From: Candidatus Eiseniibacteriota bacterium
GTDB taxonomy: Bacteria > Eisenbacteria > RBG-16-71-46
Assembly (NCBI GenBank): GCA_963717935.1
Contig: CAVQXP010000003.1
Span: 40,203-104,202, forward strand
DNA length: 64,000 bases
Direction: 5' to 3'
How positions within the stretch are numbered: the first letter of the stretch is position 1; each line of letters begins with the position of its first letter. Made by a program: the position numbers and the translations under genes. Positions 46,380-64,000 of this stretch are shown piece after piece. Under the pieces are notes generated by a model. That model saw only the letters and a list, made by a program, of their open reading frames with translations, ran no database searches and was not told the DNA's origin.

Positions 46380-46405
46380 ACTCTCCCGGGTCACGGGGAG
46401 GGCGC

Positions 46406-46672: not shown

Positions 46673-46698
46673 CGCCGTCCGCGAAGCGAGAGGCCGCG

Positions 46699-47526: not shown

Positions 47527-47535
47527 CGGGGAAGC

Positions 47536-47727: not shown

Positions 47728-47760
47728 GGGACGGAGGATGTCATATCGCGCTAGGCTGGT

Positions 47761-48127
47761 TCAAAATGGGGCCCTTTCCGTACGCCAATGGCCGTGCAGT
47801 GCGACTGCCGCGCCAGAAGGAGTTGCAGAGGCGTCGACGGCCACCCTTTTGGGACGGATGACGGTCCCGGTCTTGTGGCCCGTCGCCCCCCGCACCCAAC
47901 CCCGGATCGCTGTCTGGTCGCGTTCGCGTGCCTGGCGCTCAGGTTTCTGGGGCGTGGACCCAAGACCTCGCAGGAGTCGGCCGACATGCGCGGGGTGATG
48001 GCGCACCTTGAACCGGCGGCGGGCGACCTCCGCGACCCGTGGGCAGGTCCACAGTTCGGTGGACCGAGCGGCGATTGATCCCGAGTTTGCGCGCCACTTC
48101 GACCGGCGCGAATCCCTCACGCAGCAA
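47761..48127 (-). pseudogene. IS630-family transposase remnant (N-terminal HTH parts only, frame-broken, DDE domain absent)
   Basis: ..GFAPVEVARKLGINRRSVHR.. is in one frame and ..TELWTCPRVAEVARRRFKVRHHPAHVGRLLRGLGSTPQKPERQARERDQTAIRGW.. is in another. No catalytic domain follows. Confidence 0.6.
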
Positions 48128-48271
48128 CTTCCACGCTCGCAGCCGAAGCTGTTCCAGAGGCTCCGGGCTTTCGTGCGGACCAGGCGGTCGCTCGGCGCAT
48201 TCGAGGCCTCCGCTACCTCGCGGACTTCGCCTTGAGTTGGCCGATGGAGATGGACTGCGCAGGATCCCGGT

Positions 48272-50008
48272 CTAGTCGAGCCTGCCGGACTTCTGCAGCG
48301 CCAGGTTCAGGTTGCGCTCGGCGGCGGCGTAGTGCGGATCGATCTCGAGAGCGCGGCGCAGTTGTTGGATTGCCTCCTCGAAGCGACCCGTCTGGGCAAG
48401 GACAATGCCGAGATTGTTGTGGGCCTCGACGTAGTCGTGCTTCAGCCGGATCGCCTCGCGATAGTGCGAAATGGCCTCCTCGAGCCCGCCGTGGGCCGCC
48501 AGGGCAACGCCGAGATTGTTGTGGGCCTCGGCGTAGTCGTGCTTGAGCCGGATTGCCTCGCGATAGTGGGAAGTGGCCTCATCGAACTGGCCCTGGGCCG
48601 TCAGGGCAGTGCCGAGATTGTTGTGGGCCTCGGCGTAGTCGTGCTTCAGCCGGATTGCCTCGCGATAGTGAGAAACGGCCTCATCGAGCTTGCCCCGGGC
48701 GGCAAGGACGATGCCGAGATTGTTGTAGGCGACCTCGATCCGGTGCGGGAACTTCTGGATGGTGTCCGTCCACAGCGTCTCGGAGTTCTTCCACACGCCG
48801 CAGCGCGTCCAAGTCTGGTAGAGCGACAAGGGGAGCATCGCGATCAACACCGCGCCGATCACCAGGCGCGCGGGCCTCCCGGCCTGCCCGGGCCGAGGGC
48901 GCTCGTCGAGCCACCAGGTCAGGCCCAGCAGCAGCCCGATGTAGGGCACGTAGGTGTAGCGATCCGCCATCACCGCCTTGCCGACCGTGAAGAACTGGAG
49001 CACCAGCAGGATATTGATGAAGAAGAACGCCCAGCCGAACAGCACCGGGCGCAGGCGCCGGTAGACGAACAGCAGCGCCGGGAGGGCGACCAGCATGACC
49101 ACCAGCGCCCCGTAGAATTCCGGGCCGATGCCGCTGCCCTTGTCGGGGTAGGGATAGACGGCGGACAGGCCGACGGGAACGAACAGCTTGAGCACGTACA
49201 TGAGACTGCCGTACGAGGCGAACAGCAGCTTCTCGAAAAAACTCCAGGTGCCGACCGGGGCGACGGCCCCAACCGCCTGCTGGGCCTTGAGGGTGAGCCA
49301 TCCGGCGCCGATGGACAGCGCCAGAAGAGGCAACTTCTCCAGGACCAGCCGGATGCGGTCGGTGCGCCGGAAGAAGTAGTCGAGCGCGAGCAGCGTGAGC
49401 GGGAACACCACCGCGGCCGGCTTGGACGCCAGGGACAAGACGAAGGCCGCGAGGCAGACCGCGAACCAGGCCCAGCGCCGGCGTTCCAGGTAGCGCAGGT
49501 AGGCGATCAGGCCGAGGAGATAGAAGAGCGTGTAGAGCACGTCCTTGCGCTCGGCGATCCAGGCGACAGATTCGACGTGCATCGGGTGGATGCCGAAGAA
49601 CAGGCTGGTGGCGGTCGCGGTCCAGAACCGCCGCCGGGAGAGCATCCAGACGAACGCGAAGACGAGCCCGGTGTTCGCGAGGTGGAGCAGCAGGTTGAGC
49701 CAGTGATAGGAGGCTGGCTGGTAGCCCGAGATCCGGTAGTTGAGCGCCAGGGACAGCACGGTGAGCGGATGGTAGTTGCCGCCGAGGGGCGTCATCAGCA
49801 CGTCGACAGCGTGGGGACGAGCGACGAGTGGGTTCTCGGTTACGTAGACATCATCGTCCCAGTTGGTGAAACCGTTGCCGAGGCTCGGGAGGTAGACGAT
49901 GAACGTGAGCACCAGGATGCCGATCACCGCGAGACTCGGGATGTGGCGGTTCGCGGGGGGGGCGCCCCGCGGCTTGGCGCGGGCGGGCTCGACTCGCTTC
50001 TTGGTCAT
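48272..50008 (-). CDS. TMTC-like GT-C membrane glycosyltransferase (DUF1736-type) with C-terminal TPR repeats
   Basis: The N-terminal polytopic part has ..GNGFTNWDDDVYV.. and ..HPMHVESVAWIAERKD.. The C-terminal part has at least 4 TPR units (..AHNNLG..G...EA..HYREAIRLKHDY..). Confidence 0.8.
   Translation of the reverse strand: MTKKRVEPARAKPRGAPPANRHIPSLAVIGILVLTFIVYLPSLGNGFTNWDDDVYVTENPLVARPHAVDVLMTPLGGNYHPLTVLSLALNYRISGYQPASYHWLNLLLHLANTGLVFAFVWMLSRRRFWTATATSLFFGIHPMHVESVAWIAERKDVLYTLFYLLGLIAYLRYLERRRWAWFAVCLAAFVLSLASKPAAVVFPLTLLALDYFFRRTDRIRLVLEKLPLLALSIGAGWLTLKAQQAVGAVAPVGTWSFFEKLLFASYGSLMYVLKLFVPVGLSAVYPYPDKGSGIGPEFYGALVVMLVALPALLFVYRRLRPVLFGWAFFFINILLVLQFFTVGKAVMADRYTYVPYIGLLLGLTWWLDERPRPGQAGRPARLVIGAVLIAMLPLSLYQTWTRCGVWKNSETLWTDTIQKFPHRIEVAYNNLGIVLAARGKLDEAVSHYREAIRLKHDYAEAHNNLGTALTAQGQFDEATSHYREAIRLKHDYAEAHNNLGVALAAHGGLEEAISHYREAIRLKHDYVEAHNNLGIVLAQTGRFEEAIQQLRRALEIDPHYAAAERNLNLALQKSGRLD
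48369..48740. repeat. 102-bp tandem repeats (about 3.5 copies) encoding near-identical TPR units
   Basis: GCCGAGATTGTTGTGGGCCTCG.CGTAGTCGTGCTT.AGCCGGAT.GCCTCGCGATAGTG recurs at about 48407, 48509 and 48611, with a degenerate copy at about 48713. Confidence 0.85.
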
Positions 50009-50283
50009 CGTGAGGGTCTCGAGTGCGATGGTGCGGGCCGGGCTGGGGCTCGTGCGCGAGTGGAAGACCCGGCCTTGCTCATGTACGGCCTCCTGGCCCG
50101 AGCGGGCGGGCGCTCGGGGCTCCGAGGCGTGCGACTGCCCCCCGCGGGGGCGTGCGACATGACCGACGACATGATCGAATCAGCCCCGGCCGACCTGGCC
50201 GAGCCAGTTGCCAGAGTGTAGTCGCGGAACGTCCACCCACCTAGCGCGCGATGCGCTGTACCTGGTCTTCGGAGTCGGAGAGC

Positions 50284-51514
50284 TCAGTGATCCTCCGCCT
50301 CCTCGATCAGATGCAGCAGCACCTGCCCGCCCTCGGGGATGCTCGCGACGTCGCCGGGGATGAGCGCCAGCGCGTTGGCGCGGGCCATCGAGGAGAGCAC
50401 GCCCGAGCCCTGCGGGCCCGAGAGCCGCGCGTGCAACCCGCCGCCTTCCTCGCGCGCGAAGACCCGCAGGAAGTGCAGCCGGTCGTCCCCGGCCCGCCGC
50501 GTCCACGGCGTCTCGAGCGTGCCGCTGCCGCTCCGGGCGGAACAGGCGCGCGAAGCCCATCATGCGGCGCAGCAGCGGGCGGACGTACTCCTCCATCACG
50601 AGCATCGCGGCGACGGGATTGCCGGGGACGCCGAACACGGGCTTGCCGCCGAGCCGCCAGAGCCCGAGCGGCCCGGCGGGCTTCTGGGCGACGCGCCAGA
50701 AGACGCGCTCCGCGCCCAGTTCGTCGAGCACGTCCTTCACGCAGTCGTACTCGCCCATCGAGACGCCGCCGGTGGTCACGATCGCGTCCGCGGCGGCGGT
50801 CGCCTCGCGGAGCGCGCGCGCGACCTCTTCGCGGCGGTCGGACACGCGCGGGAAGGTCACGGGCAGCGCGCCGAAGGCCACGGCCTGCGCGCGCACGGCG
50901 TGCAGGTTGGCGTCGCGGATGCGCCCCGGCCCGGGTGGCTCGGCCACGTCCACGAGTTCGTCCCCGGTGGTGATGATCGCGAGCCGCGGCCGCGGATGGA
51001 CGGAGACCGTGGCGCAACCGGCCACGGCCAGCAGGCCGATGTCCGCGGGCCGCAGGACGTCGCCCCGCGCGATCACGCGGGCGCCGGTCGCCAGGTCCTC
51101 GCCCGCGAGGCGCACGTTCGCGCCTTCGCGCACGGGCCGGCGGACCTCGACGGCGTCGCCGGCCGACTCCGTGCTCTCGACCGGGACCACGGCGTCCGCG
51201 CCCGCGGGCAGCGGCGCGCCGGTCATGATCCGCAGCGCCGTGCCGGGCTCGACCGCGCGCGCCGCGACGTGGCCCGCGGGCACGTCTTCCAGCACGCGCA
51301 GGCGCGCGGGCGTCTGCGCGGTCGCACCCGCCACGTCCGCGGCGCGCACGGCGAAGCCGTCCATGCCGGAGTTGTCGAACGGTGGCGCGGGGTCGGCGGC
51401 GAGCACGTCCGCGGCCGCGACCAGTCCGAGCGCCTCGTCGAGCGGCACGCGCCGGGCGGGACTCGTCACGGCCGAGTCCAGCACGCGCTGCAGCGCCTCG
51501 CGGTGGGTGAGCAT
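50284..51514 (-). pseudogene. moeA: Molybdopterin molybdenumtransferase MoeA, apparent +1 frameshift near 50517-50535
   Basis: MoeA blocks ..PPFDNSGMDGFAV.. ..TTGDEL.. ..TTGGVSMGEYD.. ..GVPGNPVAA.. After ..MMGFARLFRPE.. the family-like tail LETPWTRRAGDDRLHFLRVFAREEGGGLHARLSGPQGSGVLSSMARANALALIPGDVASIPEGGQVLLHLIEEAEDH-stop (50286-50284) is in the next frame. Confidence 0.8.
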
Positions 51515-51519
51515 CGTGT

Positions 51520-51948
51520 CTACTCGATCACGCGGCGGTGGAGGAAGGACCAGTGCCGCCAGGACTTCGGCATGTGCGAGCCGATCGAGGCGACGGCGGT
51601 GGCGGCGAGGTAGAACTCGAGCCGCGCCGCGGGGAACAGCGCCCCCAGTCCGAGCAACGCCAGTTTCAGCAGGACCGCGACGCCGTTGCCCTGGTACAGG
51701 TACGCGCCGCTCTTCCAGAGGTCCACGCCCAGCAGCAGCAGCCCGCTGGCGATCGTGAGCGCGATGGCGGAGGTCAGCGCCGGCTCCGGGACCGAGTAGG
51801 CCACGCCGCCGAGCACGAGCCCCATCGCCACGACGTGCACCGTGCGCGCGGCCACCTGCACCGCGCGCAACCCGCGGAACGTGCGCGGGGGGCGGGGCGC
51901 GAGACGCTCGCGCAGGCTCCCGCGTTCGGCTGCGGCCCCGGCTGGCAT
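51520..51948 (-). CDS. Small membrane protein, unknown function
   Basis: The ATG at 51948 is 2 nt after the upstream stop. It has 3-4 TM helices (..VHVVAMGLVLGGV.. ..IALTIASGLLLLGV.. ..VAVLLKLALLGLGAL..). Confidence 0.5.
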   Translation of the reverse strand: MPAGAAAERGSLRERLAPRPPRTFRGLRAVQVAARTVHVVAMGLVLGGVAYSVPEPALTSAIALTIASGLLLLGVDLWKSGAYLYQGNGVAVLLKLALLGLGALFPAARLEFYLAATAVASIGSHMPKSWRHWSFLHRRVIE

Positions 51949-51950
51949 GG

Positions 51951-53534
51951 TCAGACGCCGATGCCCGGCATGCGCGGCATGGTGATGCGCTCGGACGTGG
52001 TCTTGCCCTGCGTGAAGTTCATGAGGTAGTCGGGGCCGCCGGCCTTCGAGTCGGTGCCCGAGAGGTTGAACCCGCCGAAGGGGTGCACGCCCACGAGCGC
52101 GCCGGTGCAGCCGCGGTTCAGATAGAGATTGCCGCAGTGGAACTCGTGCTTCGCGCGGTCGATCCGCTCGATGCTGGTCGAGTAGACCGCGCCGGTCAAC
52201 CCGTAGCGCGTGTCGTTGGCGATGTCCAGCGCCTGGTCGAAGCTCGTGGCCTCGATGACGGCCAGCACCGGCCCGAAGATCTCCTCCTGGCCGAGGAACG
52301 AGCGCGACGTCACCTGGTCGAAGATCGTGGGCGCGAGGTAGTGGCCCGGGCGGTCGAGCGCGTGCCCGCCCAGCAGCAGCCGGGCCTCCGCCTTGCCCCG
52401 TTCGATGGCCTTGAGGATGCCGGCGTGCGCCCTGGCGTTCGCCACCGGCCCGGTGAAGACGCAGGGGCCGTCCCACGGGAGCCCGGCGGGCAGCGGCTTC
52501 GTCTTCTCGAGGATCGACGCGACCAGGCGGTCCTTCACGGCCGCGTGGACGATGAGGCGCGAGCAGGCCGAGCACTTCTGTCCCTGGAAGCCGAAGGCCG
52601 AGCGCACCACGTCGCTCGCCGCCGCGTCCAGGTCGGCGGTCTCGTCCACGACGATGGCGTCCTTGCCGCCCATCTCCAGGACGAAGCGGGTCATCCACCG
52701 GCGCCCGGGCTCGGGCTTCGAGGCGATCTCGTTGATGCGCAGGCCCACGTCGGCCGAGCCGGTGAAGGAGACGAAGCGGACCTCGGGGTGCGTGACCAGG
52801 TAGTCGCCGACTTCGCCGCCGGGGCCGGGCAGCAGGTTGATGACGCCGTCGGGCACGCCGGCCTCGCGCGCCAGCGCGACGAAGCGCGCGGCGATCACCG
52901 GCGTGTCGGAGGAGGGCTTCAGGAGCACGGCGTTGCCGCTCACCACGGCGGCCATGGTCATGCCGGCCAGGATCGCGAGCGGGAAGTTCCACGGCGCGAT
53001 CACCGCGCCGACGCCCAGCGGGATGTAGTAGAAGCAGTTGTCCTCGGTCGGGATCCGGGTGAGCGGCTGGTACTGGAAGTGCTTGAGCGCCAGCCGCGCG
53101 TAGTACTCGCAGAAGTCGATGGCCTCGGCGATCTCGGCGTCGGCCTCGTACCAGTCCTTGCCGATCTCGTACGAGAGCAGCGCCAGGAAGTCGAACCGGT
53201 CGCGGCGGATGAGCGCGGCCAGCTTCATCAGCGTCTCGGCGCGGATCTCCGGGTCGGTGCGCGCCCAGGACGCGAAGGCCTTCCGCGCCTCGGCGATGGC
53301 CTCGTCCACGTGGGCGCGCGTGCAGCTGGCGGCCCGGCCGACCACGCGGTCGGGCAGGGCGGGGCAGAGCGAGACGATGCTCTTCGCGGTCTCGACGCTG
53401 CGGCCGCCGATGAGGGCGGGGTGGTAGCCGTCGAGCCCGCCCTCGAGCGCGGCGATGGCCCGCTCGGCCGCCTTGACGTTCGCGTCCAGCGAGTAGTCGC
53501 AGATGGGCTCGTTCTTGAAGCGCGTGCAGATCAT
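51951..53534 (-). CDS. pruA: L-glutamate gamma-semialdehyde (1-pyrroline-5-carboxylate) dehydrogenase, aldehyde dehydrogenase family
   Basis: ..APWNFPLAI.. ..FTGS..VG.. ..LEMGGKD.. ..GQKCSACSR.. ..EEIFGPVL.. ..NRGCTGALVGVHPFGG.NLSG.. is the PruA-type tail. ATG at 53534 follows GGGAGG. Confidence 0.9.
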   Translation of the reverse strand: MICTRFKNEPICDYSLDANVKAAERAIAALEGGLDGYHPALIGGRSVETAKSIVSLCPALPDRVVGRAASCTRAHVDEAIAEARKAFASWARTDPEIRAETLMKLAALIRRDRFDFLALLSYEIGKDWYEADAEIAEAIDFCEYYARLALKHFQYQPLTRIPTEDNCFYYIPLGVGAVIAPWNFPLAILAGMTMAAVVSGNAVLLKPSSDTPVIAARFVALAREAGVPDGVINLLPGPGGEVGDYLVTHPEVRFVSFTGSADVGLRINEIASKPEPGRRWMTRFVLEMGGKDAIVVDETADLDAAASDVVRSAFGFQGQKCSACSRLIVHAAVKDRLVASILEKTKPLPAGLPWDGPCVFTGPVANARAHAGILKAIERGKAEARLLLGGHALDRPGHYLAPTIFDQVTSRSFLGQEEIFGPVLAVIEATSFDQALDIANDTRYGLTGAVYSTSIERIDRAKHEFHCGNLYLNRGCTGALVGVHPFGGFNLSGTDSKAGGPDYLMNFTQGKTTSERITMPRMPGIGV

Positions 53535-53679
53535 CCTGGGCCTCCCGTGGGAATGACGCGGCCATTCTATCCCACGCCGCATCCGTCTGGCACCCCGCCG
53601 CGCGCCCTGAAAACCCGCGTGGGTTGTGGCATACTCCCCGCCGCGAACATCGGCTCACCCTGGAGTGCGCGGAGACGAC

Positions 53680-54462
53680 ATGGAGCCCATGGAACTCAAG
53701 GAGATGAAGGCGGCCCACCGGGTCCTGGCCGCGCTCGACTACCCGCCGGGCGAGGTCGAGCGCGGCTACGCGAACCGGACGCTGCACGTGGACCTGGGCG
53801 CGAACACGATCGAGGCCCGGCCGGTCACGCAGTACATGAAGGACTTCTTCACCGGCGGCAAGGGGTTCGACCTCTACCTGATGTGGAAGTCCGTCCCCGG
53901 CCCGATCCCCTGGGACGACCCGCGCAACGGGCTCTACTTCTCCGCGGGGCCGCTGGCCGGAACGCCGTATTTCTCGGGCTCGGGCAAGTGCCTGGTCACC
54001 GGCATCTCGCCGCTCACCAGCTCCGTCATGGACTGCAACGTCGGCGGGCACTTCGGGCCGCTGCTCAAGTTCGCCGGCTTCGACGCCCTCGAGGTGCGCG
54101 GCAAGGCCTCCGAGTTCGTGATGCTGGTCATCGACGGCGACGCGCACCGCGTCACGCTCGAGACCGCGCCGCACGAGGCGCTCGACTCCTACGACGTCGC
54201 CAGCCAGCTGCACCGCATGTACGCCCGCACGCCCGCCGAGCTGCAGGACATCTCGGTCGTGTCGGCGGGCCGGGGGGCGCTCCACACGCTGATCGGCTGC
54301 ATCAACATCTCGTTCTACGACTGGAAGCGCCACGAGCCGCGCCTCAAGCAGGCCGGCCGCGGCGGACTGGGCAGCGTGATGATGAACAAGCAGCTCAAGG
54401 CGATCGTGGCCCGGACGGCGAAGAACCGTCCGCGCTGGGCGATGTCGGTGGAGGCGCCATGA
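53680..54462 (+). CDS. Stand-alone aldehyde:ferredoxin oxidoreductase N-terminal (AFOR_N) domain protein
   Basis: ..GYANRTLHVDL.. ..FTGGKGFDLYL.. ..SAGPLAGT...GSGK..V.G.SPLT.......N.GG.FG..LK.AG.DALEV.G.. ..AGRGGLGSVMMNKQLKAIV.. covers the AOR N-domain only. The stop overlaps the next gene's ATG (ATGA), so no AOR domains 2/3 follow. Confidence 0.75.
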   Translation: MEPMELKEMKAAHRVLAALDYPPGEVERGYANRTLHVDLGANTIEARPVTQYMKDFFTGGKGFDLYLMWKSVPGPIPWDDPRNGLYFSAGPLAGTPYFSGSGKCLVTGISPLTSSVMDCNVGGHFGPLLKFAGFDALEVRGKASEFVMLVIDGDAHRVTLETAPHEALDSYDVASQLHRMYARTPAELQDISVVSAGRGALHTLIGCINISFYDWKRHEPRLKQAGRGGLGSVMMNKQLKAIVARTAKNRPRWAMSVEAP

Positions 54463-55010
54463 GCCCCGGAGGGAATGGCTCCATGCCTACGGTGATCGTT
54501 CCGGACGTGCTCGGGGTGGACGCCATCGTGGACCGCTGGGGCGCGGACCCCGAGTTCGCCGTCGAGATGCTGCAGGACGTCCAGAAGCACTACCGGCACC
54601 TGCCGAAGACCGCGCTCGAGCGCATCGCCGAGCGCACGCACGCCGACCTGGCGCGGCTCTACCACATCGCCACCTTCTTCAAGGCGTTCTCGCTGACGCC
54701 GCGCGGCGAGACCACGATCCAGGTCTGCACCGGCACCGCCTGCCACGTGCAGGGCGCGGCGCGGGTGCTCGACGCCTTCGGCCGCGAGCTGGGCGTGAAG
54801 CCGGGCGAGACCACCGCGGACCAGAAGTACAGCCTCGAGGGCGTGCGCTGCCTGGGCTGCTGCGGGCTGGCGCCGGTGGTGACCTTCGGAGCGGAGCTGG
54901 TCGGCGGGGTGGACTCCTCCAAGGTCGGCAAGCTGATGCGCCGGCACCGCAAGACCGGCTCCGTGGTCGCGCGGCAGGCGAGCGCCGCGGCGGAGGACGC
55001 CGATGCCTAG
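54459..55010 (+). CDS. NuoE/HndA-like [2Fe-2S] thioredoxin-like ferredoxin subunit
   Basis: ..LQDVQKHYRHLP.. ..IQVCTGTACHVQGA.. ..LEGVRCLGCCGLAPV.. carries the four-Cys NuoE pattern. Confidence 0.85.
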   Translation: MSPGGNGSMPTVIVPDVLGVDAIVDRWGADPEFAVEMLQDVQKHYRHLPKTALERIAERTHADLARLYHIATFFKAFSLTPRGETTIQVCTGTACHVQGAARVLDAFGRELGVKPGETTADQKYSLEGVRCLGCCGLAPVVTFGAELVGGVDSSKVGKLMRRHRKTGSVVARQASAAAEDADA

Positions 55011-56392
55011 GGTGACCCTCGAGAACCTCGACACCCTGGCGCGCGAGGCCCAGCGGCGCCACGCGGGCTGGAAGTCCATGCTCATGGTCTGCGCCGGCAC
55101 GGGCTGCGTCTCGGCCAAGTCGCTGCCCCTGCGCGATGCCTTCCGCCAGGAGCTCGAGCGCCGCGGCCTGCAGGACGAGATCAAGGTCGTGGCCACGGGC
55201 TGCAACGGCTTCTGCGCCCACGGGCCGATCTGCGTGGTCCAGCCCGAGGGCGTGTTCTACGAGCGCCTCAAGGCCGAGGCCGTGCCCGAGCTGATCGAGT
55301 CGCACTTCGTGAGGAAGCAGCCGCTCGAGGACTTCCTCTACCGCTCGAGCGGCGGCGAGAAGACGGTCCCGCTCGAGAAGGACATCGAGTTCTTCGCCAA
55401 GCAGCAGTGCATCGCGCTGCGCAACCGGGGCCGGATCGACCCCGAGGACATCACGGACGCGATCCGCACCGGCGCGTACCAGGCGCTCGCGAAGATCCTG
55501 CGCGAGGGGCTCGACGGCGACACGCTCGTCCAGCGACTGGTCCGCTCGGGGCTGCGCGGGCGCGGCGGCGGCGGTTTCCCCGCCGGCGTCAAGTGGAAGT
55601 CCTGCCTCGAGGCCGCGCGCGCGCAGGACGTGCGCCCCTTCATCGTCTGCAACGGCGACGAGGGCGACCCGGGCGCCTTCATGGACCGCAGCATCGTCGA
55701 GGCCGACCCGCACGCCGTGATCGAGGGCATGCTGATCGGCGCGCGGGCGCTCGGCGCCACCGAGGGCTTCGTCTACATCCGCCACGAGTACCCGCTGGCG
55801 CTCCAGCGTCTCATCCGGGCGCTCCAGCAGGCCCGCGAGTGGGGCCTGCTGGGCAAGGACATCCTGGGCACGGGGATGGAGTTCGACATCACCATCCACC
55901 GCGGCGCCGGCGCCTTCGTCTGCGGCGAGTCCACCGCGCTCATGGCCTCCATGGCGGGCCGCGCCGGCGAGCCCCGGGCGAAGTACGTGCACACCGTCGA
56001 GCACGGCTTCCGCGACCTGCCGACGGTGCTCAACAACGTCGAGACCTGGGCCAACATCCCGCAGATCGTCCTGAACGGTCCCGAGTGGTTCGCCGCGATC
56101 GGCACCGGCGACGTCTCGAAGTCGCCCTGGGGCGGCAGCAGCGGCACCAAGGTCTTCTCGCTGGTCGGCAACATCCGCAACTCGGGTCTGGTCGAGGTGC
56201 CGATGGGCATCACGCTGCGCGAGATCGTCTTCGACATCGGCGGCGGAATCCCGGACGGCAGGAAGTTCAAGGCCGTGCAGACCGGCGGCCCCTCGGGCGG
56301 CTGCCTGCCCGAGTCGAAGCTCGACCTGGCGGTGGGACTTCGACACGCTGGTCGAGGCCGGCTCCATGATGGGCTCGGGCGGCATGATCGTG
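55003..56392 (+). pseudogene. NuoF/HydB-like NAD(P)H-binding flavoprotein subunit, +1 frameshift near 56332-56336 and 3'-truncated at the composition junction
   Basis: N-terminal [2Fe-2S] Trx-like domain (..VCAGTGC..GCNGFCAHGP..), FMN/NADH blocks (..GLRGRGGGGFPAG.KW.. ..CNGDEGDPGAFMDR.. ..GAGAFVCGESTAL..), then in the next frame ..DFDTLVEAGSMMGSGGMIV. Similarity stops there and the C-terminal 4Fe-4S motif is absent. Confidence 0.85.
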
Positions 56393-56393
56393 C
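56392..56393. other. Abrupt base-composition and gene-content junction (probable chimeric join)
   Basis: At ..GGCATGATCGTG|CACCCAAGAC.. GC-rich sequence gives way to AT-rich sequence within a few nt. Both flanking genes lose family similarity here. Confidence 0.8.
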
Positions 56394-58383
56394 ACCCAAG
56401 ACTACCGTTTCGCCATCATGCACGGCCACGGAGCTGTCAATTTCTTTTTTATCAATAGTTGGGGATTGCTTTTGTGTTGCTGAAGCGGAAGATGCTACTG
56501 GTACTACGTTACTGACAATTTGTTTCAGTTTCATAATCACCAAGCCGTTGGCATTGACTCTGGGAGTGACATCCAGGGTAACACCGGTATCTTTATATTG
56601 AATGGTATTGGATACGGCTCCATTGTTAATAGCACCACCCAGAGGGATCGTGGTACTGCCGGTTGATATGGGGACTTGTTGACCCACATTTATTTTTGCT
56701 TTCTGATTATTTAACACCATTAACGAAGGTGAAGAAATAACGTTGACATTTCCTAATGACGCCTCTGCACGTAAAAGCGCTTTCACCGAGCCCGCATTAT
56801 AAAACATGCTAAGACCGCCGGTTGATGCTGCTGCTGCTGCTGCTGCTGCTGAGGGAAGACTACCTATAAATCCCGTGGGTTTATCGTCATTATTTAAATA
56901 CCAGGCGATACCATACTTTAAATTATCCTCTAATTTGACCTGCACGACTGTGGCATCAATCAAAACTTGTAGCGGCATTACATCCAGTTGGTTAATAATC
57001 GGCAAGATGACTTCGTAGTCTTGCGCAGAGGCCACGATAATCACTGAATTATTGGGTTCATCGGCAATGATATTTACCTTGCCGACATTGGCGACTTTAA
57101 TATCTCCAGAGTCCACTGCCTCCCGATGATTTTTCATCTGACTTATTTACGGCGAACGCTCCCAGATTGCCGGATGGCTCATTACCTGCCGATGACTTTT
57201 CATCAGACTGTGTAAAGGCTAGGGATCCCGGAGTGCCGGACAGCGTATTACCAGTATTGCCGGTATTGCTCGCATTCGACATTGATGAAGCTGTTTCTCC
57301 AGGCGCAACCTTGGCTGATTTGGTTTTTTTGGCACCCCCTGAGAAAATTGCATTCAAGGTATCTGCCAATTCCCCGGCATCAGCATGTTGCACTTTATAG
57401 ACATTTACACCACCGCCCGAAGCCGTATTGGCCTTATCCAACCTGAATACCCAGTTTTCAATATCATTCAGATAGTGCGCCTGACGGGTAACCGCCAAGA
57501 CCGCATTTAAGCGATCTATCGGTAAAAACTCAAAAAACTCTGATTTGTCGCCTTTACCTTTTGGATGAAAAACCGTTTGTAACTCTTCAATCATGGTGTC
57601 AGGATCAACATGGGCCAATGGGAATAAACCAAATGAACGCCCCTTTAATAAATCAATATCAAAAGTGCTGACTAAATCCATTACCCTCGCGATTTCATCG
57701 GCTGTTCCCGAAGCCACCATAATATTGCGGGCGGGATCTACATTGAGTATGGTTTTTTCATGCACCAAGGGTTTCAAAATATCGGCAATTTCCTGCACGG
57801 CGACGTTTCTAACCGGTATAACCCGAGTTTGATACCCTGATCGACTACTTGACATATCGGAAATAAATAAGGCATCTGCCACAGGCTCAATATGATAAAT
57901 CTTGCCATTCTTAACCAAAGCCGCATTGTTCATCCGCAGAACCATTTCCAGGGTAGGCAGTAACTCTTCTTTGGTTAAGGGTTCAGTGGTTTGTAACGTG
58001 ACCTTGCCGACTACTTTGGGGCTTAATACGTAGTTTTGCCCGAGGATATCGCTCAAGATCACTTTTGCCACTTCGCCAAGGTCGGCATCATCAAAGTTAA
58101 GACTGTATGAACCCGTACCCGTCGAGGGCGTTTTTCTGTTTTGCGGCGTGGTACCGGATACAAAACGGTCAGTCCCCGGATACAGCTCACTTTTTGTTTG
58201 TTTCGATCCGGCAGCGGGTGGTTTATTTTGCATTTGCTGAAAAACCACATCCGGTTGCTCCCTTGTTACTGAATCTAACGACCTTTTTGCGCTAAGTTGA
58301 GGGCCCATTAACTCACAGCTTCCAAGTGATAAGCCTATAAGCAAAAAGCAGGAGGCCGTTGTTACTTTTTTAAAGTTACTCAT
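56393..58383 (-). pseudogene. gspD: Type II secretion secretin GspD, +1 frameshift near 57110-57140 and 3'-truncated at the composition junction
   Basis: N0-N3 domains (..YSLNFDDADLGEVAKVILSDILGQNYVLSPKV.GKVTL.. ..VIPVRNV.. ..VYKVQHADA..). The second track ORF carries N3 and the secretin domain (..NIIADEPNNSVIIVAS.. ..QVLIDATVVQV.. ..VISSPSLMVLNNQKA.I.VGQQVP.. ..VTPRVN.. ..VAVHDGETVVLG) and then stops matching. ATG at 58383. Confidence 0.85.
56827..56850. repeat. (GCT)8 trinucleotide repeat on the plus strand, encoding Ala8 in GspD
   Basis: GCTGCTGCTGCTGCTGCTGCTGCT. On the coding strand this is (AGC/GCA)n, read as ..LPSAAAAAAAAST.. Confidence 0.9.
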
Positions 58384-59050
58384 TATTATTCTCAAATTCC
58401 CCTTCTGCAGGTTCGGGTTCGGGTATCAGGTCGGGTTGTAGTTCTGGTTGTGGTTGGGGTTCAGGATCAGTTTCGGTTTCGGGTTGTGGTTCGATTTGAG
58501 GGTTATAAGGCATTTTTGGTACATTTGACTTCTTGGATGGATCTTTCGGTTTTATTTTTCGGAGCAGTAATTCCTTTTGCTGACTACCTTGCTTAAGGAC
58601 GGCTCTGTCCTCAAGTATTTTATCCAGTTTCCAGCCATCAAGATCTGCGCCAACACCAATTCTTCGATGGTTATCTTTCGCAACTTTTGATGTAGAGCGG
58701 CTAAATAATGCAGATAAGCCTTTTTTTGTCGTATAGACGCCGCTCAATTGCCAATCAAAAGGTTTTACCACCGCCACATTCTGTGCTTGCGCTTCTTCAG
58801 GGCTCGGTTCAGCTACAGGTTTTCTGCCTTTAATAAACAGTGGCCTGGTAACCAAATCGGTATAACTTTCTTCCGACTGCCCTGTCAGCTCTATGCTCGG
58901 CATCTCGTCGTGAGATTTTTTTGCATCCACTGAAGTTATTGAGGTCAGAATCTTTTTTTGTGTATGGGCTGCCCAGAAAGATTCTCCAAAAATAATCAGT
59001 GAGAACACGGCGCAAACTGAAGCGAGCACAAAGATGAATTTACTGTTCAT
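58376..59050 (-). CDS. gspN: GspC-type inner-membrane protein of the XpsN/GspN kind (HR domain only, no PDZ) with acidic Pro-rich tail
   Basis: N-terminal TM helix, the ..LVTRPLFIKGRKP.. motif, and a PilP/HR-like core ..WQLSGVY....GLSALF......VGADLDGWKL..I....VL.. The tail is PQIEPQPETETDPEPQPQPELQPDLIPEPEPAE. Its position directly upstream of gspD matches Xps-type clusters. Confidence 0.6.
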   Translation of the reverse strand: MNSKFIFVLASVCAVFSLIIFGESFWAAHTQKKILTSITSVDAKKSHDEMPSIELTGQSEESYTDLVTRPLFIKGRKPVAEPSPEEAQAQNVAVVKPFDWQLSGVYTTKKGLSALFSRSTSKVAKDNHRRIGVGADLDGWKLDKILEDRAVLKQGSQQKELLLRKIKPKDPSKKSNVPKMPYNPQIEPQPETETDPEPQPQPELQPDLIPEPEPAEGEFENNNE

Positions 59051-59733
59051 TCTGCTTGTTTTCTCATAAAACTGACGGCCTGAAAGTTAACGTTCAATTC
59101 ATTGCTGGCTTCGATTTGGCGTGTCAATCTATTCCTTGATCCACGCATAGGTCTAATATCAATCTGATCGATAATAATTAAAGGAGTCGATGTTTCTATC
59201 TTATAAAGAACAGCACGCAAGGTTTCGCTATTTCCTGTCATTCTCACTCTGACGGTTATCCGGCTAAATTTGTCTTTATCATTATCTGGTGGAAGTGCTT
59301 GGGTACTACTCAATTGCCCTCCTGCATCAACTATCACCTTTTTGATAAATTCCTGCATTTCTGCAGATGCTAACGCATCAGTGGTCTGGCTATTAAAATA
59401 ACCTTGCGTATCATGTTGTTGTTTTATTTTAGCCATGTTGGCAATAACAGTGTCTTTCGTCGCTAAAATTCTTTCATATTGCTGCAGCTTAAATATAAGA
59501 TTATTTTTAGCTTCATTTAACTCCATTTCCTTCCTGACCAACGGTGCGAAAATGACCAAAATGATAACGAGTAATACGGCAAATAACAAACCAACGGCGA
59601 TCCAGCGTTGTTGTAATTCATGAGCATCAAGTTTTTTATCTTTACTCACAATAAATTTTTCCTGCTTTAGCCGCATCAACAGTGATCTGAAACCGTTGAA
59701 GCTTGCTAAATCGAATTTCTTATCTTTACTCAC
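59047..59733 (-). CDS. gspM: Type II secretion protein GspM (PilO-like)
   Basis: One TM helix (..WIAVGLLFAVLLVIILVIFAPL..) plus a periplasmic ferredoxin-like domain, placed between gspL and gspN. The start is ambiguous because of an 84-bp in-frame duplication: ATG 59784, GTG 59733 or GTG 59649. Confidence 0.7.
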   Translation of the reverse strand: MSKDKKFDLASFNGFRSLLMRLKQEKFIVSKDKKLDAHELQQRWIAVGLLFAVLLVIILVIFAPLVRKEMELNEAKNNLIFKLQQYERILATKDTVIANMAKIKQQHDTQGYFNSQTTDALASAEMQEFIKKVIVDAGGQLSSTQALPPDNDKDKFSRITVRVRMTGNSETLRAVLYKIETSTPLIIIDQIDIRPMRGSRNRLTRQIEASNELNVNFQAVSFMRKQAE

Positions 59734-59793
59734 TTTTAATTTTTCCTGCTTTAGCCACATCAACAGTGATCTGAAACCGTTCAAGCTTGCTAA
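59636..59793. repeat. Tandem duplication with 84-bp period, two ~74-bp copies spanning the gspL stop / gspM start
   Basis: TTATCTTTACTCAC(AATA/TTTT)AATTTTTCCTGCTTTAGCC(G/A)CATCAACAGTGATCTGAAACCGTT(G/C)AAGCTTGCTAA occurs at 59636-59709 and 59720-59793. Confidence 0.85.
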
Positions 59794-60832
59794 TCATATC
59801 CTGAGTGACTGGCGATGCAAATCGGGCATTAACAAACATATCAGAGGCCTCCAGGACGGCAATCAGTGTTGACGCTGCCGGAGATTCACCTTGTATTTGT
59901 AAATGTCCGTCCGAGTATTGCGCATAGGTGAGCCATGTGTCGTTTTTAATAAGTGAACTTAAGGTATTCAACATATCTATCACTTTAGGCGTTTCGCTTT
60001 TCTCGGCAATCAACTGCCGGGTTTCATCTATTTCTGCATCAATGTCTGACTGCAATGCCCTAACTTTTTTGGCATCCTTTTCCAGGGCACTGGTTTTTAA
60101 CTGCAAGGCGTTAACTGTTTGATATTCAAACCAGACGGGCATCGCAATAACCGCTACCAGCAGCAAACAAGTCAACGTTATTAGTGAAGAATGAATTAAA
60201 CGGGGTATTTTTGAGGTTTTTTGCCTTAGCCTTTCGGGTAAAAGATTGTAACTGTCATAGAGTTGATCAAGATTATTGGGCGAACCCTCATAATCGGCTA
60301 ATAATGGAAATAAGCCCATCGCTTTGATATCATCATAATGTCCATTAAGTAGTTGTCTGGTTGTCAATATCAACATGACCCTGATTTGTCCCGGCTCATT
60401 TTCACCAGCCAGCGGCTTGACGGCAAAATAGACTTGTTCTGTTTTAAATGGCGTATAGCGGTCAAGTTCGTAAGCGACGACCTGATATAGATTATCTTTT
60501 GCAGCGACAGGTAGGTTAAGTTCTTTTTGAATGGCGTCCTGTCCCGTTAATCTGAGTATTATATTGGCTTTCACCAACCGTTCATCTTTTTCACAAAGGC
60601 GCTGAAAGGTGAGGCCTCTGGCACCATTTTCCGGGATTTCCAGCGGTTCAATTTGCCCATTAAGCTGATAGGTCAACTCTAACTGGTCGCCTTTAGGTCT
60701 TACTATAATAAATCCTTGCTTGTTATTAACAAGCTGTTTTATTTTTTCAGGTACTAAAAAGCCAAGCTCCCGCGTCCACCAGCGGAAGAACCGATTGAAT
60801 TCCAGATCAATTGTCGAGTTCAGTTTCAGCAT
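59726..60832 (-). CDS. gspL: Type II secretion protein GspL (cytoplasmic actin-like domain, TM helix, periplasmic domain)
   Basis: 368 aa with a single central TM helix (..LITLTCLLLVAVIAMPVW..) and the N-terminal ..FFRWW..EL..L.P.. It sits between gspK and gspM. Family similarity is weak by eye, so the call rests partly on synteny. Confidence 0.7.
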   Translation of the reverse strand: MLKLNSTIDLEFNRFFRWWTRELGFLVPEKIKQLVNNKQGFIIVRPKGDQLELTYQLNGQIEPLEIPENGARGLTFQRLCEKDERLVKANIILRLTGQDAIQKELNLPVAAKDNLYQVVAYELDRYTPFKTEQVYFAVKPLAGENEPGQIRVMLILTTRQLLNGHYDDIKAMGLFPLLADYEGSPNNLDQLYDSYNLLPERLRQKTSKIPRLIHSSLITLTCLLLVAVIAMPVWFEYQTVNALQLKTSALEKDAKKVRALQSDIDAEIDETRQLIAEKSETPKVIDMLNTLSSLIKNDTWLTYAQYSDGHLQIQGESPAASTLIAVLEASDMFVNARFASPVTQDMISKLERFQITVDVAKAGKIKSE

Positions 60833-61784
60833 ACTGTTTCACTACTAATTCACTCATTGCATCGGTAAATAATGAGGCATTATTTGCGGTTAAATGCTGC
60901 CATTTTAATACTTGAAAGGGTGTTGTTTGAGCTTGGTCGGATTGGCTTATCGCCACGCTTATCACTGCACTGGATTCATCACTCATAAGGGCTTCAGAAA
61001 CAAGGGAAATCACATTATTTTGTCCGGAGGGGTTATTATTCAGTCCGGCGGGGCTATTTTGTCCTGAACTTGAAGGAAATGGCGGAGCAGGCAGATTATT
61101 TTTCGCGCTTTCCAGTCTGGCAGCAATATAGGAATCTACCAGCCCTCTATCCAAGCCGGGAATGACCTGTAATACTTCTTTGGCAGCCTGTTGCACTGTA
61201 ACTTGCTGCTGCCCTGAATAAGTGGTGATTAATGGCTCAATCCAATTAAAAACTGCCTTATCCATACCCAATACCATCTGTAATTCTTCAATTGACTGAA
61301 AAGATTTATTTCCAGGCTGATAGTCCAAGCCCGCATCCTTATATTCTGCTTTTTCCGCGCCCTCTAAATGCACCAAATCATCTTCATCACGCCAATCGAT
61401 AATGGCATTGACAAGCTTCTCTTGCTGATCCGAATCTACCGGGGAGGATGCCAACAAGCTTTTTAATAATCCTTCACTTGCCTTATTAATGTCTATTTTA
61501 CCTTTTTCAGATAAAAGCCTTACCCGAACTTTGGCATCCGCCGCCGTAATTTCATAAATATTGCCGTCTGCACGCCAAGCTTTATCCGGTTCAGGGTTCA
61601 ACAACATCATTTCAGCCATTGCAATACCGGACTCTGCAATAGCCAGAGCCTGGGCATTATTTTTAACCGCCCCTATAATAGAGGACTCGCGGCGCATACT
61701 CAGTGCAAAACTTCCGGCCATAATAGTCAGTAAACTCAACACCCACAGCACGAGAACCAAAGCCATACCCTTTTGCCGTATCAC
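60807..61784 (-). CDS. gspK: Type II secretion minor pseudopilin GspK
   Basis: ..QKGMALVLVLWVLSLLTIMAGSFA.. ..A.A.AESGI..A.. ..INKAS...L..LL.. ..I.DW.D.D......GAE...Y...G..Y.P.N..F.S..EL..V.G.. is the GspK pattern. Confidence 0.85.
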   Translation of the reverse strand: MIRQKGMALVLVLWVLSLLTIMAGSFALSMRRESSIIGAVKNNAQALAIAESGIAMAEMMLLNPEPDKAWRADGNIYEITAADAKVRVRLLSEKGKIDINKASEGLLKSLLASSPVDSDQQEKLVNAIIDWRDEDDLVHLEGAEKAEYKDAGLDYQPGNKSFQSIEELQMVLGMDKAVFNWIEPLITTYSGQQQVTVQQAAKEVLQVIPGLDRGLVDSYIAARLESAKNNLPAPPFPSSSGQNSPAGLNNNPSGQNNVISLVSEALMSDESSAVISVAISQSDQAQTTPFQVLKWQHLTANNASLFTDAMSELVVKQYAETELDN

Positions 61785-61800
61785 TCAAACGCCACTCAGT

Positions 61801-62481
61801 TTAATTAGTATTTTGAAAGTTGCCAGCATTGTTTGTATTATCAATGCCGAGACCTCCGTTGCTTGCCTCGCCCGTAACCTTAAGATCAATTATCATTTCC
61901 GGCCAGTAGATGCCATTTTCCAGTTGGATGTTAATTTTAACTAATCGGGGCAGAACTGTTTTATTCAGCCATTCCGCATTCCAGACTCCTTCGCTCATTC
62001 CATCCTCTGAACCAAAATAAGCCAGGGAAAAATCGCTTACGTGCCTTATTAACGTCACCTCTTCATCGGGCCATTTTGAGCCCTCGGCCAACTTGGCAAA
62101 CGGGGTTAAATTCACTTTAACAATCGGCTCATTATCTTCTTCCGTCAGAGATAAGGAAAATAACTGTAAACCGGACCTGCCGGCACTTGCCGGGAAAGCT
62201 GAAACAAAATGTACAGAGTCTGCATTGCCTTGAAAAGAAAAAGTTTTCTCTTCATCTTCTTTAAAATCATTCCATAAGGGTTGTGCAACAGATAGATGCC
62301 TTTGAAAAAAATTATAAACGACAGCGATTTCATTGACTTCAGATATCTTGGTTTCACCCTTCTCCCAGCTATCGGCACAAATTTTTAAACTGGTAAATAG
62401 TAGCACAACCATAATACTTAATAGCGTCATCGCGATGAGTACTTCAATCAGGGTAAAGCCACCCGGGCGCGAGGAGCTCAA
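61801..62481 (-). CDS. gspJ: Type II secretion minor pseudopilin GspJ
   Basis: Prepilin-type N-terminus ..PGGFTLIEVLIAMTLLSIMVVLL.., about 226 aa, placed between gspI and gspK. Confidence 0.8.
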   Translation of the reverse strand: MSSSRPGGFTLIEVLIAMTLLSIMVVLLFTSLKICADSWEKGETKISEVNEIAVVYNFFQRHLSVAQPLWNDFKEDEEKTFSFQGNADSVHFVSAFPASAGRSGLQLFSLSLTEEDNEPIVKVNLTPFAKLAEGSKWPDEEVTLIRHVSDFSLAYFGSEDGMSEGVWNAEWLNKTVLPRLVKINIQLENGIYWPEMIIDLKVTGEASNGGLGIDNTNNAGNFQNTN

Positions 62482-62498
62482 ACGGTGTGATCGTTCAG

Positions 62499-62576
62499 TC
62501 CCCTCTTTGGAAAAGAGGGGTTAGGGGAGATTTTATTAGATAAATCCCCCTCAATCCCCCTTTTACAAAGGGGGAG
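62499..62576. repeat. REP/MITE-like nested palindromic element in the gspI-gspJ spacer
   Basis: Arm A is TCCCCTCTTTGGAAAAGAGGGGTTAGGGGAGATTT. Arm B, inverted, is AAATCCCCCTCAATCCCCCTTTTACAAAGGGGGAG. Each arm has its own 8-bp hairpin (CCCCTCTT/AAGAGGGG and CCCCCTTT/AAAGGGGG). Confidence 0.7.
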
Positions 62577-62631
62577 GTGAACGCTTACCAAACGGCAGGT
62601 TTTTTTAATTCTGTGCCTTGTTCCCTGCGAA

Positions 62632-63057
62632 TTAATTGCTCTCATTTGTCTTATTGATCAATTTTAAAGTGGTTAATTTAACCTGTCTGTCATTGTCACC
62701 ATCATCACCCCAACTTACGATGACCTTAATTTTAAAGAGCTCTGCCTTCATAGTCGTAACATCAACATTTTCAGGATTAAACACAAACGGGCTGACTTCA
62801 ACCAGCCAATGATATTTATTATTTTCCAGTCCTGAATCCTCGCCTGGTTGCAATGGCGTTTCCACTCCTGTTTTAGCCATTAAGCCTTCAGCAATTTGAA
62901 CGGCCGCCGTATAGTCTTCTGCAACAACCGCCGTATTGACACCTGAGGAAAATATCTTTAGCAAGATACCCAACGAAATTGCGAGGATTGAAAATGCAAT
63001 CAGGATTTCCAGCAAAGAAAACCCCTTTTGCTTATTTGCTGCCGCTGGTGTCTTCAA
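62632..63057 (-). CDS. gspI: Type II secretion minor pseudopilin GspI
   Basis: ..KQKGFSLLEILIAFSILAISL.. prepilin N-terminus, 141 aa. Confidence 0.85.
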   Translation of the reverse strand: MKTPAAANKQKGFSLLEILIAFSILAISLGILLKIFSSGVNTAVVAEDYTAAVQIAEGLMAKTGVETPLQPGEDSGLENNKYHWLVEVSPFVFNPENVDVTTMKAELFKIKVIVSWGDDGDNDRQVKLTTLKLINKTNESN

Positions 63058-63562
63058 GTTCTATTTGACCGGTTAACCAGTTGATATCGATTTGCCAGGC
63101 TGCTTTGCCCCGCTCCAGCGTAACTCTGCCGCCCGTTGAGGAGCCGTCGGCAAAAAAACGGATACTCCCCAAACCTTTGCTGATTATCTCGCTTTGCGCA
63201 GTGACCACTGTGAGGTCAACGGTTTCGGGGATATAGAAAACCTTGTCCCGACCATTTACCGTGTAAGTGTTTTCTGAAAGATCAAAGGTTACGACAGTTT
63301 CCTGATGTGACATTAAAGCCTGTCCCCTGGCAAAGCGAAGAGCCGAAACAATGTCTCTGGCTGCGACTTTAAGCTCGGCTGAATCATTCCCGGAAGAAAG
63401 GTTAATGCCAATCACAGAAAAGCCTAATACGACAATAAATAACACAACAGTTAGTTCAAGCAGGGTAAAGCCTCTATTCAGGCCTAAGTTTGCAGGCACA
63501 AAGTGCCGGTTCTTTTTACCTGTGAACCTTATGCTGATCAGCTTATTCCCAACTGACAACAT
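63032..63562 (-). CDS. gspH: Type II secretion minor pseudopilin GspH
   Basis: ..NRGFTLLELTVVLFIVVLGF.. ..AARDIVSALRFARGQAL.. The start is uncertain: ATG 63562 overlaps gspG, while GTG 63499 would give a 10-aa leader. Confidence 0.8.
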   Translation of the reverse strand: MLSVGNKLISIRFTGKKNRHFVPANLGLNRGFTLLELTVVLFIVVLGFSVIGINLSSGNDSAELKVAARDIVSALRFARGQALMSHQETVVTFDLSENTYTVNGRDKVFYIPETVDLTVVTAQSEIISKGLGSIRFFADGSSTGGRVTLERGKAAWQIDINWLTGQIELEDTSGSK

Positions 63563-63971
63563 CCTGATCTTCGCCTGTACCACCTTCCTTACCGTCCGCA
63601 CCCATGGAAGATATGTCAAACCTTCCGTGTTCGCCGGGGGACACATAATGGTATTCGTTCTGCCATGGATCAAGAGGTATTTTGGCTTTGCTTAAATACG
63701 GGCCGTTCCAGTGCTTTGCAGTGTCAGGCGCTTCAATTAATGCCTGCAAACCTTGCTCGGTAGTCGGATAATTTCCCGCATCCAGTTTATACATATCCAG
63801 CGTAGCCGACAGATCTTCAATTTGTACCTTTGCCGCTTTGGTTTTGGATTCGCCCATGTGCTTCATGACCTGTGGGCCGACAATCCCGGCCAGCATGGCA
63901 ATAATGCCCAACACAACCAATAACTCAAGTAAGGTGAAGCCTGCTTGCTTATCATTTTTAATATGTTTCAT
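63543..63971 (-). CDS. gspG: Type II secretion major pseudopilin GspG
   Basis: MKHIKNDKQAGFTLLELLVVLGIIAMLAGIVGPQVM......K.A...I..L...L..Y.LD.G.YPT..QGL.AL........W.GPYL.....DPW...Y.Y..PG.HG.FD..S.G.DG. is the canonical GspG pattern. An alternative ATG lies at 63983. Confidence 0.9.
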   Translation of the reverse strand: MKHIKNDKQAGFTLLELLVVLGIIAMLAGIVGPQVMKHMGESKTKAAKVQIEDLSATLDMYKLDAGNYPTTEQGLQALIEAPDTAKHWNGPYLSKAKIPLDPWQNEYHYVSPGEHGRFDISSMGADGKEGGTGEDQDVVSWE

Positions 63972-64000
63972 TGTTAGTTCCATTTTCGTTAAAAAGCTAA

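Follow-up and report, generated by a model that had tools for sequence, protein, structure and literature searches.

The 64,000-nucleotide stretch of DNA analysed here (the window) very probably contains a non-biological chimeric join at 56392|56393 that, judged from the letters on either side, would be a feature of no genome; if a gapless join made after assembly is included, a non-biological origin is close to certain. Base composition and oligonucleotide usage both change abruptly at one point, and gene-level taxonomy switches there as well, with each flank matching its own lineage up to the breakpoint. The preliminary description had explained the site as a mis-assembly or concatenation of two organisms, and this reading is supported by the different lineages of the two flanks, the blunt break and the lack of any mobile-element signature.

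The abrupt composition switch described earlier near 56392 was confirmed: GC is 0.715 in 1..56392 and 0.434 in 56393..64000, and in 1-kb bins it stays at 0.68-0.78 throughout 1..56000 and at 0.39-0.47 across 57000..64000. The maximum-likelihood GC change point falls at 56434 (support interval: 56380..56440; log-likelihood ratio: 588), and composition alone places the break only to within about 60 bp. Tetranucleotide usage, which the preliminary description had proposed comparing between the halves, separates them in the same way (chunks of the left side correlate at 0.97-0.98 with one another and at about -0.3 with the right side).

The exact position was set by homology from both flanks, using eight independent assemblies. 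Seven of these are relatives of the left side (86-94 % nucleotide identity up to the breakpoint); the alignments of L003, L004, L005, L166, L167 and L168 end at 56392 and that of L006 at 56391. From the other side, the alignment of L001, a Methylococcaceae contig, begins at 58708 on the minus strand and ends at 56393, in agreement with the earlier statement that two genes are cut at one nucleotide. Past the breakpoint the left relatives continue with ATGGACGA... where the window has CACCCAAG..., and L001 continues with GCTTAATT where the window has CACGATCA. The base that follows ATCGTG is A in the left relatives, the base that precedes CACCCAAG on the plus strand is C in the right relative, and neither parent sequence has the bases of the other across the join. 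A restriction/ligation site, GTGCAC, is formed at the join; it was taken as coincidence because neither parent sequence has it. Coordinates of the join and of the features around it are collected in the table.

Table. Features of the window that bear on the join (positions are those of the window).
Feature	Position	Strand	State	Basis
High-GC segment	1..56392		72 % GC bacterium, ordinary chromosomal DNA	GC, tetranucleotides, Pfam, colinear relatives
NuoF/HydB-like gene	55003..56392	+	3'-truncated, codons 1-463 of 627	Pfam, relatives' alignments
Extra G (GG to GGG)	56334..56336	+	frameshift in NuoF-like gene, 57 bp before join	comparison with L003, L004, L005
Join	56392..56393		blunt; 0 bp shared, 0 bp inserted	alignments to relatives of each flank
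Type II secretion operon	56393..64000	-	Methylococcaceae	colinear with L002, Pfam
gspD, type II secretion secretin	56393..58383	-	3'-truncated at codon 667 (first base) of 756	
Gene at gspC position	58376-59050	-	without Pfam domain	
gspM	59047-59733	-		Pfam
gspL	59726-60832	-		Pfam
gspK	60807-61784	-		Pfam
gspJ	61801-62481	-		Pfam
gspI	62632-63057	-		Pfam
gspH	63032-63673 (ORF)	-	start uncertain	Pfam
gspG	63543-63971	-		Pfam

By its domains and alignments, the gene cut on the left is a truncated member of the NuoF/HydB family. Pfam identified Complex1_51K (E 3e-42), 2Fe-2S_thioredx and SLBB in it. It detected neither NADH_4Fe-4S nor the two ferredoxin-type domains, because the gene stops at codon 463 of 627, which accounts for the C-terminal Fe-S motif that had been reported missing. 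The combination typical of NuoF/HydB-type proteins (Complex1_51K with a C-terminal NADH_4Fe-4S/N3 cluster) is therefore incomplete. Its relatives are 626-628 aa long, carry PF10589 and Fer4 domains, and run on beyond the breakpoint into the remainder of the 627-aa gene. The frame correction applied to this gene in the preliminary description also stands: at 56334-56336 the window reads GGG, against GG in every relative, and a codon-periodicity HMM switches frame at 56334/56335.

The gene cut on the right is a GspD secretin gene, both truncated and frameshifted. Two bases are deleted between 57112 and 57111, which leaves the gene as two ORFs, and its product is 94 % identical at the amino acid level to full-length P0001. 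Pfam finds N0 and Secretin_N, and of the 169 positions in the Secretin profile it matches only 4-120; the C-terminal Secretin domain is thus incomplete, as stated earlier for a secretin cut at the join. L001 (94 % identical) is colinear with the interior of gspD from the first base right of the join and runs on past 56393 into the remainder of the 756-aa GspD. Neither the remainder of gspD nor that of the NuoF-like gene was found anywhere in the window, and the same holds for the natural downstream genes of the left operon (a 669/674-aa Fer2-Fer4-AFOR_C protein and ThiS).

Separate homology searches of the two halves, also suggested in the preliminary description, gave matches of 94-97 % to Methylococcaceae on the right and of 86-94 % to high-GC contigs on the left. 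Only gsp genes lie between the join and 64000, and the right segment is colinear, at 96.8 % nucleotide identity, with L002 (MAG GCA_037142375.1, Methylococcaceae bacterium); dN/dS is 0-0.19 for the secretion genes. The secretion genes are under purifying selection and without amelioration, resembling those of a living methanotroph, and the source of the segment is taken to be a Methylobacter-like Methylococcaceae methanotroph. The foreign piece spans at least 7.6 kb, and its second boundary falls outside the window. It may end near window position 64000, for which a weak hint is that the GspE and GspF clusters of L002, in the cluster listings, have no member from the contig that holds the window.

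On the left, the Pfam content includes hyp maturation genes, PBP1, an ars cluster, Ddl, an IS3 element and moeA, together with an aldehyde dehydrogenase and a split-AFOR/NuoE/NuoF operon. The nearest transposase to the join belongs to this IS3-family element (46405-47526, 9 kb left of the join). L004, L005, L166 and L167 are colinear with the window over 50282..56392, and the AFOR/NuoEF operon is intact in all seven left relatives examined. The nearest named relatives of this side are proteins of a 'Deltaproteobacteria bacterium' or of Myxococcota MAGs (66-75 %). A protein-guided scan of GTDB genomes yielded a single useful relative, L006 (84 % at the amino acid level); the same scan of JGI metagenomes, with output swamped by generic NuoF motifs, yielded nothing closer than 65 %.

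A boundary between host and foreign DNA may also arise by real horizontal transfer, and the sequence around the join was searched for signs of it. Flanking repeats were at chance level, no inverted repeat and no microhomology for template switching were found at the join, terminator-like sites were at chance level, and the sole tRNA of the window lies at 634-708. No integrase or recombinase gene adjoins the join, where the neighbours are the NuoF-like gene and gspD. The boundary accordingly has no terminal inverted repeat of an IS or transposon, and no att or direct repeats, target-site duplication, tRNA/tmRNA target or adjacent integrase of a genomic island; the repeat, tRNA and terminator searches agree with the earlier claim that IS end, att repeat, tRNA and terminator are all lacking here. 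Transfer would then mean that a high-GC chromosome recently acquired at least 7.6 kb of Methylococcaceae DNA by illegitimate (end-joining) recombination, which can yield blunt joins without microhomology, and that the AFOR/NuoEF operon was destroyed, the truncated genes being pseudogenes that have started to collect frameshifts. We consider this very improbable. The public contig does contain the join, and each cut gene does carry a frameshift, as in decaying pseudogenes, but mobile-element, att, target-site-duplication and tRNA signatures are all missing, there is no amelioration, the other secretion genes are intact (dN/dS 0-0.19), and the target operon is unbroken in 7/7 relatives examined. 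A chimeric contig is also, a priori, far more likely than such an event in any one stretch of 64 kb (bioRxiv 10.1101/2025.04.22.649783). If true, it would be a very recent blunt end-joining transfer of a methanotroph type II secretion operon into the middle of a conserved operon of an unrelated 72 % GC bacterium, with no mobile element involved.

The distribution of frameshifts bears on the same question. Three were confirmed (moeA, ~50527-50528; the NuoF-like gene, 56334-56336; gspD, 57111/57112) and two are probable (~28995 and ~43090), and all five affected genes are intact in relatives. They could in principle be real pseudogenes. Those far from the join (moeA and probably two others) favour consensus errors over the local decay expected after transfer, and their spread over 64 kb suggests an indel-prone, probably long-read-like consensus. 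Clustering of frameshifts at the join as a result of low coverage was also considered and rejected, since others lie at ~50528 and probably at ~43090 and ~28995.

In the public record, the junction-spanning ORF P0242 (532 aa) and the proteins of both flanks are found on one 120,818-bp NCBI/ENA contig, and all of them except GspG are recorded on no other contig. The join is thus present in the deposited contig and was not produced by the cutting of the window. The same species is also represented by another assembly, a 461,538-bp contig on which AFOR_N shows no difference and 524/527 residues of the aldehyde dehydrogenase agree; the confinement of the junction proteins to one contig despite this assembly is a further point against horizontal transfer. 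The junction is missing from all eight relatives (seven left, one right), and the junction 28-mer does not occur among the GTDB-representative genomes or in the JGI metagenome collection. Entries from the two contigs (461,538 bp and 120,818 bp) turned up neither in the cluster listings of L004 and L002 proteins nor in a search for homologues of the 669-aa AFOR_C fusion.

The join, which the deposited record contains, may also have been made after assembly: two contigs with ends that happened to fall within the NuoF-like gene and gspD would have been joined without a gap, at the stage of scaffolding, gap closing or contig merging or when the MAG was prepared for submission. It would still be an artefact. 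Contig ends normally cut genes, and pasting yields a blunt join without overlap. Scaffolders usually insert runs of N, however, and the window has none; moreover, binning or scaffolding would hardly place a 7.6-kb contig of 43 % GC with contigs of 72 % GC (tetranucleotide correlation: -0.3). We therefore regard this route as improbable, while nothing in the sequence separates it from a chimera made by the assembler or within a read.

In the preferred reading, a chimera formed before or during assembly, a 72 % GC bacterium and a Methylobacter-like Methylococcaceae methanotroph from the same microbial community would have had their DNA fused end to end in library preparation, sequencing or assembly, and the fusion would have been deposited within the 120,818-bp contig. 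The likeliest route would be a chimeric long read, made by ligation of two fragments or by reading two molecules as a single one, or else a path error of a long-read metagenome assembler; either would have added the foreign piece, which is at least 7.6 kb long, to the high-GC contig. The sequencing platform, and the choice between read and assembler as the origin, are inferred. The foreign piece has about 3 small indels in 7.3 kb against its 97 % relative, fewer than one raw nanopore read should show, so that a chimera from one read would require accurate reads, or else polishing with reads that come from the real methanotroph. A repeat chimera of a De Bruijn graph was rejected, as the join has no shared k-mer.

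The join matters as quality control only: a deposited MAG contig would contain DNA of another organism, 7.6 kb of it at the least. Whatever is read across 56392|56393 would be false, be it operon context, horizontal transfer or a type II secretion system of the high-GC organism, and the earlier caution on operon context holds for this position. Fusion proteins across the join, such as the 532-aa P0242, would likewise be false, and this chimeric ORF is already in public protein collections. The scattered frameshifts, for their part, make gene calls on the contig unreliable.

In long-read metagenome assemblies, chimeric contigs that cross phyla are documented to be common, as are unsupported indels; they are recognised by the very kinds of sign described here, and the chimeras were diagnosed by read clipping and coverage steps (bioRxiv 10.1101/2025.04.22.649783). 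The contig studied here resembles the chimeric contigs of metaFlye, metaMDBG and hifiasm-meta in that study in its sudden shift of GC and gene taxonomy, its frame-breaking indels and its two parts from different phyla or classes; it differs in that the join was diagnosed from sequence alone rather than from clipping or coverage. Ligation libraries are reported to produce chimeric nanopore reads (PMC5600009, PMC13141652). As in the chimeras described there, unrelated molecules appear joined bluntly, without microhomology and at arbitrary points inside genes; unlike them, no adapter remnant lies between the parts, and the foreign piece is cleaner than a raw nanopore read. With a genomic island the join shares a block of foreign composition and foreign taxonomy that abuts host DNA. 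Unlike an island, it has a boundary without integrase, att or direct repeats, tRNA target or IS end, genes cut mid-domain, no amelioration and, in the window, a single visible boundary.

The composition break is large and genuine. GC content lies at 0.64-0.78 in all 1-kb bins of positions 1-56000 and at 0.39-0.47 in all bins of 57000-64000 (overall 0.715 left of the join versus 0.434 right of it), and a two-segment likelihood model placed the change point at 56434 (support interval 56380..56440; log-likelihood ratio 588), in keeping with the sharp GC switch near 56392 reported in the preliminary description. Tetranucleotide profiles of 7.6-kb chunks correlated at 0.97-0.98 within the left part and at about -0.3 between the right part and any left chunk.

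Each half was also compared separately with its closest genomes, which gave different relatives per half, each matching up to the join. Alignments of six independent metagenome contigs to the left part (L003, L166, L167 and L168 at 93.5-94 % identity; L004 and L005 at 89 %) end at 56392, and that of L006, a GTDB representative (86.5 % identity), ends at 56391; past ..GGCATGATCGTG the left relatives continue ATGGACGAC..., giving the continuation ..MIVMDD... The minus-strand alignment of L001, a Methylococcaceae contig (94 % identical), runs from 58708 to 56393; past ..GTCTTGGGTG, L001 has GCTTAATT (..VLGGLI..) and the window has CACGATCATGCC. Truncation of both genes at one nucleotide, as previously claimed, therefore holds to the base. 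The join is blunt, with 0 bases common to both parents and 0 bases inserted, which rules out an adapter remnant, a template switch at microhomology and any join through a repeat or shared k-mer.

Features adjoining or near the join, in window coordinates
Feature	Position	Strand	Basis
NuoF/HydB-like flavoprotein gene, 3'-truncated	55003..56392	+	Pfam, relatives
gspD (secretin GspD), 3'-truncated	58383..56393	-	Pfam, relatives
Type II secretion operon (gspG-H-I-J-K-L-M, gspC-position gene, gspD)	56393..64000		
IS3-family insertion sequence (OrfA, OrfB)	46405-47526		Pfam-type domains HTH_Tnp_1, rve/rve_3

The NuoF/HydB-like gene carries 2Fe-2S_thioredx, Complex1_51K and SLBB domains (Pfam). Its relatives (626-628 aa) additionally have NADH_4Fe-4S and ferredoxin-type 4Fe-4S domains; codons 1-463 alone are present in the window, which agrees with the described loss of the C-terminal Fe-S part. 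An extra G (GGG at 56334-56336, GG in all relatives) breaks the frame 57 bp ahead of the join, which is why the initial reading needed frame correction. Downstream of this gene all relatives encode a 669/674-aa Fer2-Fer4-AFOR_C protein, ThiS and ThiF, and the DNA of these genes is absent from the whole window. The gene belongs to a conserved operon with a split aldehyde:ferredoxin oxidoreductase (window 53680-56392; L004 8684-15136; L166 6728-15859), ordered as a 260-aa AFOR_N protein, a NuoE-like protein and the NuoF/HydB-like protein; in relatives it goes on to the Fer2 + 4Fe-4S + AFOR_C fusion, ThiS and ThiF, in some cases also an ABC transporter. Upstream of the operon are moeA and an aldehyde dehydrogenase gene. 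Homologues are abundant in many phyla (7991/8000 scored candidates at E <= 1e-100), and the predicted product may be an NAD(P)H-linked aldehyde oxidoreductase of the tungsten or molybdenum type.

GspD retains its N0 and Secretin_N domains, with the Secretin profile matched at 4-120 of 169 only (Pfam); the gene ends at the first base of codon 667 (closest full-length relative, 756 codons), so the remainder of the secretin domain is indeed missing. The gene is also interrupted between 57112 and 57111, where two bases are missing; this deletion lies at the edge of a 66-nt tandem duplication (57114-57245, 71 % identity) that encodes a repeated ..SDEKSS.. linker. A GCT/GCA run at 56826-56849 encodes poly-Ala. 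Further along the gene, at about 56834 and 56627, its length differs from that in L001 by 3 and 6 bp, in both cases in frame; this stretch of the secretin is variable, with low sequence complexity.

The left part consists of unremarkable chromosomal DNA from a high-GC bacterium. It contains hypF/D/B, PBP1, a hybrid histidine kinase, an ars cluster, Ddl, the IS3 element, moeA and aldehyde dehydrogenase; the closest relatives with a name are MAG proteins assigned to 'Deltaproteobacteria'/Myxococcota (66-75 %). Its hydrogenase maturation cluster (HypF, HypD, HypB-like protein; 3047-9810) and arsenic-resistance cluster (ArsP permease, ACR3/SBF family protein, ArsR; 31106-33726) appear intact. The right part matches L002, a contig of NCBI MAG GCA_037142375.1 'Methylococcaceae bacterium', colinearly at 96.8 % identity, and Methylobacter is the source of the best named full-length secretins; the gene in the gspC position has no Pfam domain. 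Substitutions relative to L002 are mainly synonymous (dN/dS 0-0.19, six genes), and the right-part genes look like those of a living methanotroph, without amelioration toward 72 % GC. A 110-bp insert between gspI and gspJ (62486-62595), absent from L002, folds into a long, almost perfectly paired hairpin (-52.4 kcal/mol, z = -6.2) and resembles a MITE-like element or small palindromic repeat; a search of the 168 fetched loci found no further copies.

P0242, a 532-aa ORF across the join, is recorded in a public protein collection (NCBI, ENA) on a 120,818-bp contig, together with left-flank proteins (PfkA, YraQ, Ddl, aldehyde dehydrogenase) and right-flank proteins (GspG, GspL, the gspC-position protein, an N-terminal GspD fragment); the chimera therefore belongs to the deposited contig and was not created by cutting the window. 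The junction ORF, GspD fragment, GspL and gspC-position protein are recorded on this contig only, and the junction 28-mer is absent from GTDB-representative genomes and JGI metagenome contigs. In a second assembly of the left-part species, a 461,538-bp contig encodes an identical AFOR_N protein and an aldehyde dehydrogenase that matches at 524/527 residues.

Further frameshifts were sought with a codon-periodicity HMM, which recovered the known shift at 56334 and indicated others. Compared with L166 and L004, moeA (50284-51514, minus strand) has one extra base at about 50527-50528, 5.9 kb from the join; MoeA_N and MoCF_biosynth are in one frame and MoeA_C in another (ORF 50284-50559). Two further shifts are probable from the HMM and translation: one at about 28995 in an MBL-fold hydrolase gene (28.1-29.1 kb, plus strand; ..KPLADLDRD, then WGTGFMTPEAFLQIAYQDL..HDHHH and a stop), and one at about 43090 (..FPAVFTA, then LADGRLHLSAV...) in a gene (42.8-44.2 kb, plus strand) that is possibly HNH-like as judged by eye and gave no domain in a Pfam search. 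The 64 kb hold three confirmed (moeA, NuoF-like, gspD) and two probable frameshifts, in genes intact in relatives, scattered without clustering at the join. We infer what looks like an indel-prone consensus of long-read type, with which the 121- and 461-kb contigs from an uncultured high-GC organism would be consistent.

No direct or inverted repeats involving the join were found, nor any tRNA or Rfam match there (the sole match in the window is tRNA-Asn at 634-708); terminator-like sites are at no more than chance level, and the closest transposase is 9 kb away. The described lack of an IS end, att repeat, tRNA or terminator at the join was thus confirmed. The IS3 element occupies a patch of the high-GC segment where GC falls to 0.64, in a region absent from L006; OrfA (HTH_Tnp_1) spans 46406-46672 and OrfB (rve/rve_3) 46699-47526, with the customary change of frame from one to the other. 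A real, very recent cross-phylum insertion via end joining is highly improbable, given no mobile-element signature, no amelioration, a target operon intact in every relative, frameshifts contig-wide and a low prior.

The blunt join, unrelated flanks and lack of insertion signature and amelioration support the proposed chimeric join. We conclude that the join is almost certainly an artefact: very probably a chimeric read or assembler path error, which would have fused DNA of two community members, with gapless concatenation after assembly, a variant of the same non-biological verdict, an unlikely route. Its biological interest is therefore low; the contig is to be split between 56392 and 56393, and, as cautioned earlier, no operon context can be inferred across that point. 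Long-read metagenome assemblers have been documented to yield contigs merging distinct phyla, identifiable where GC, coverage and gene-level taxonomy change abruptly, and their assemblies also contain unsupported, ORF-breaking indels (bioRxiv 10.1101/2025.04.22.649783); chimeric nanopore reads from ligation libraries have been reported (PMC5600009, PMC13141652).
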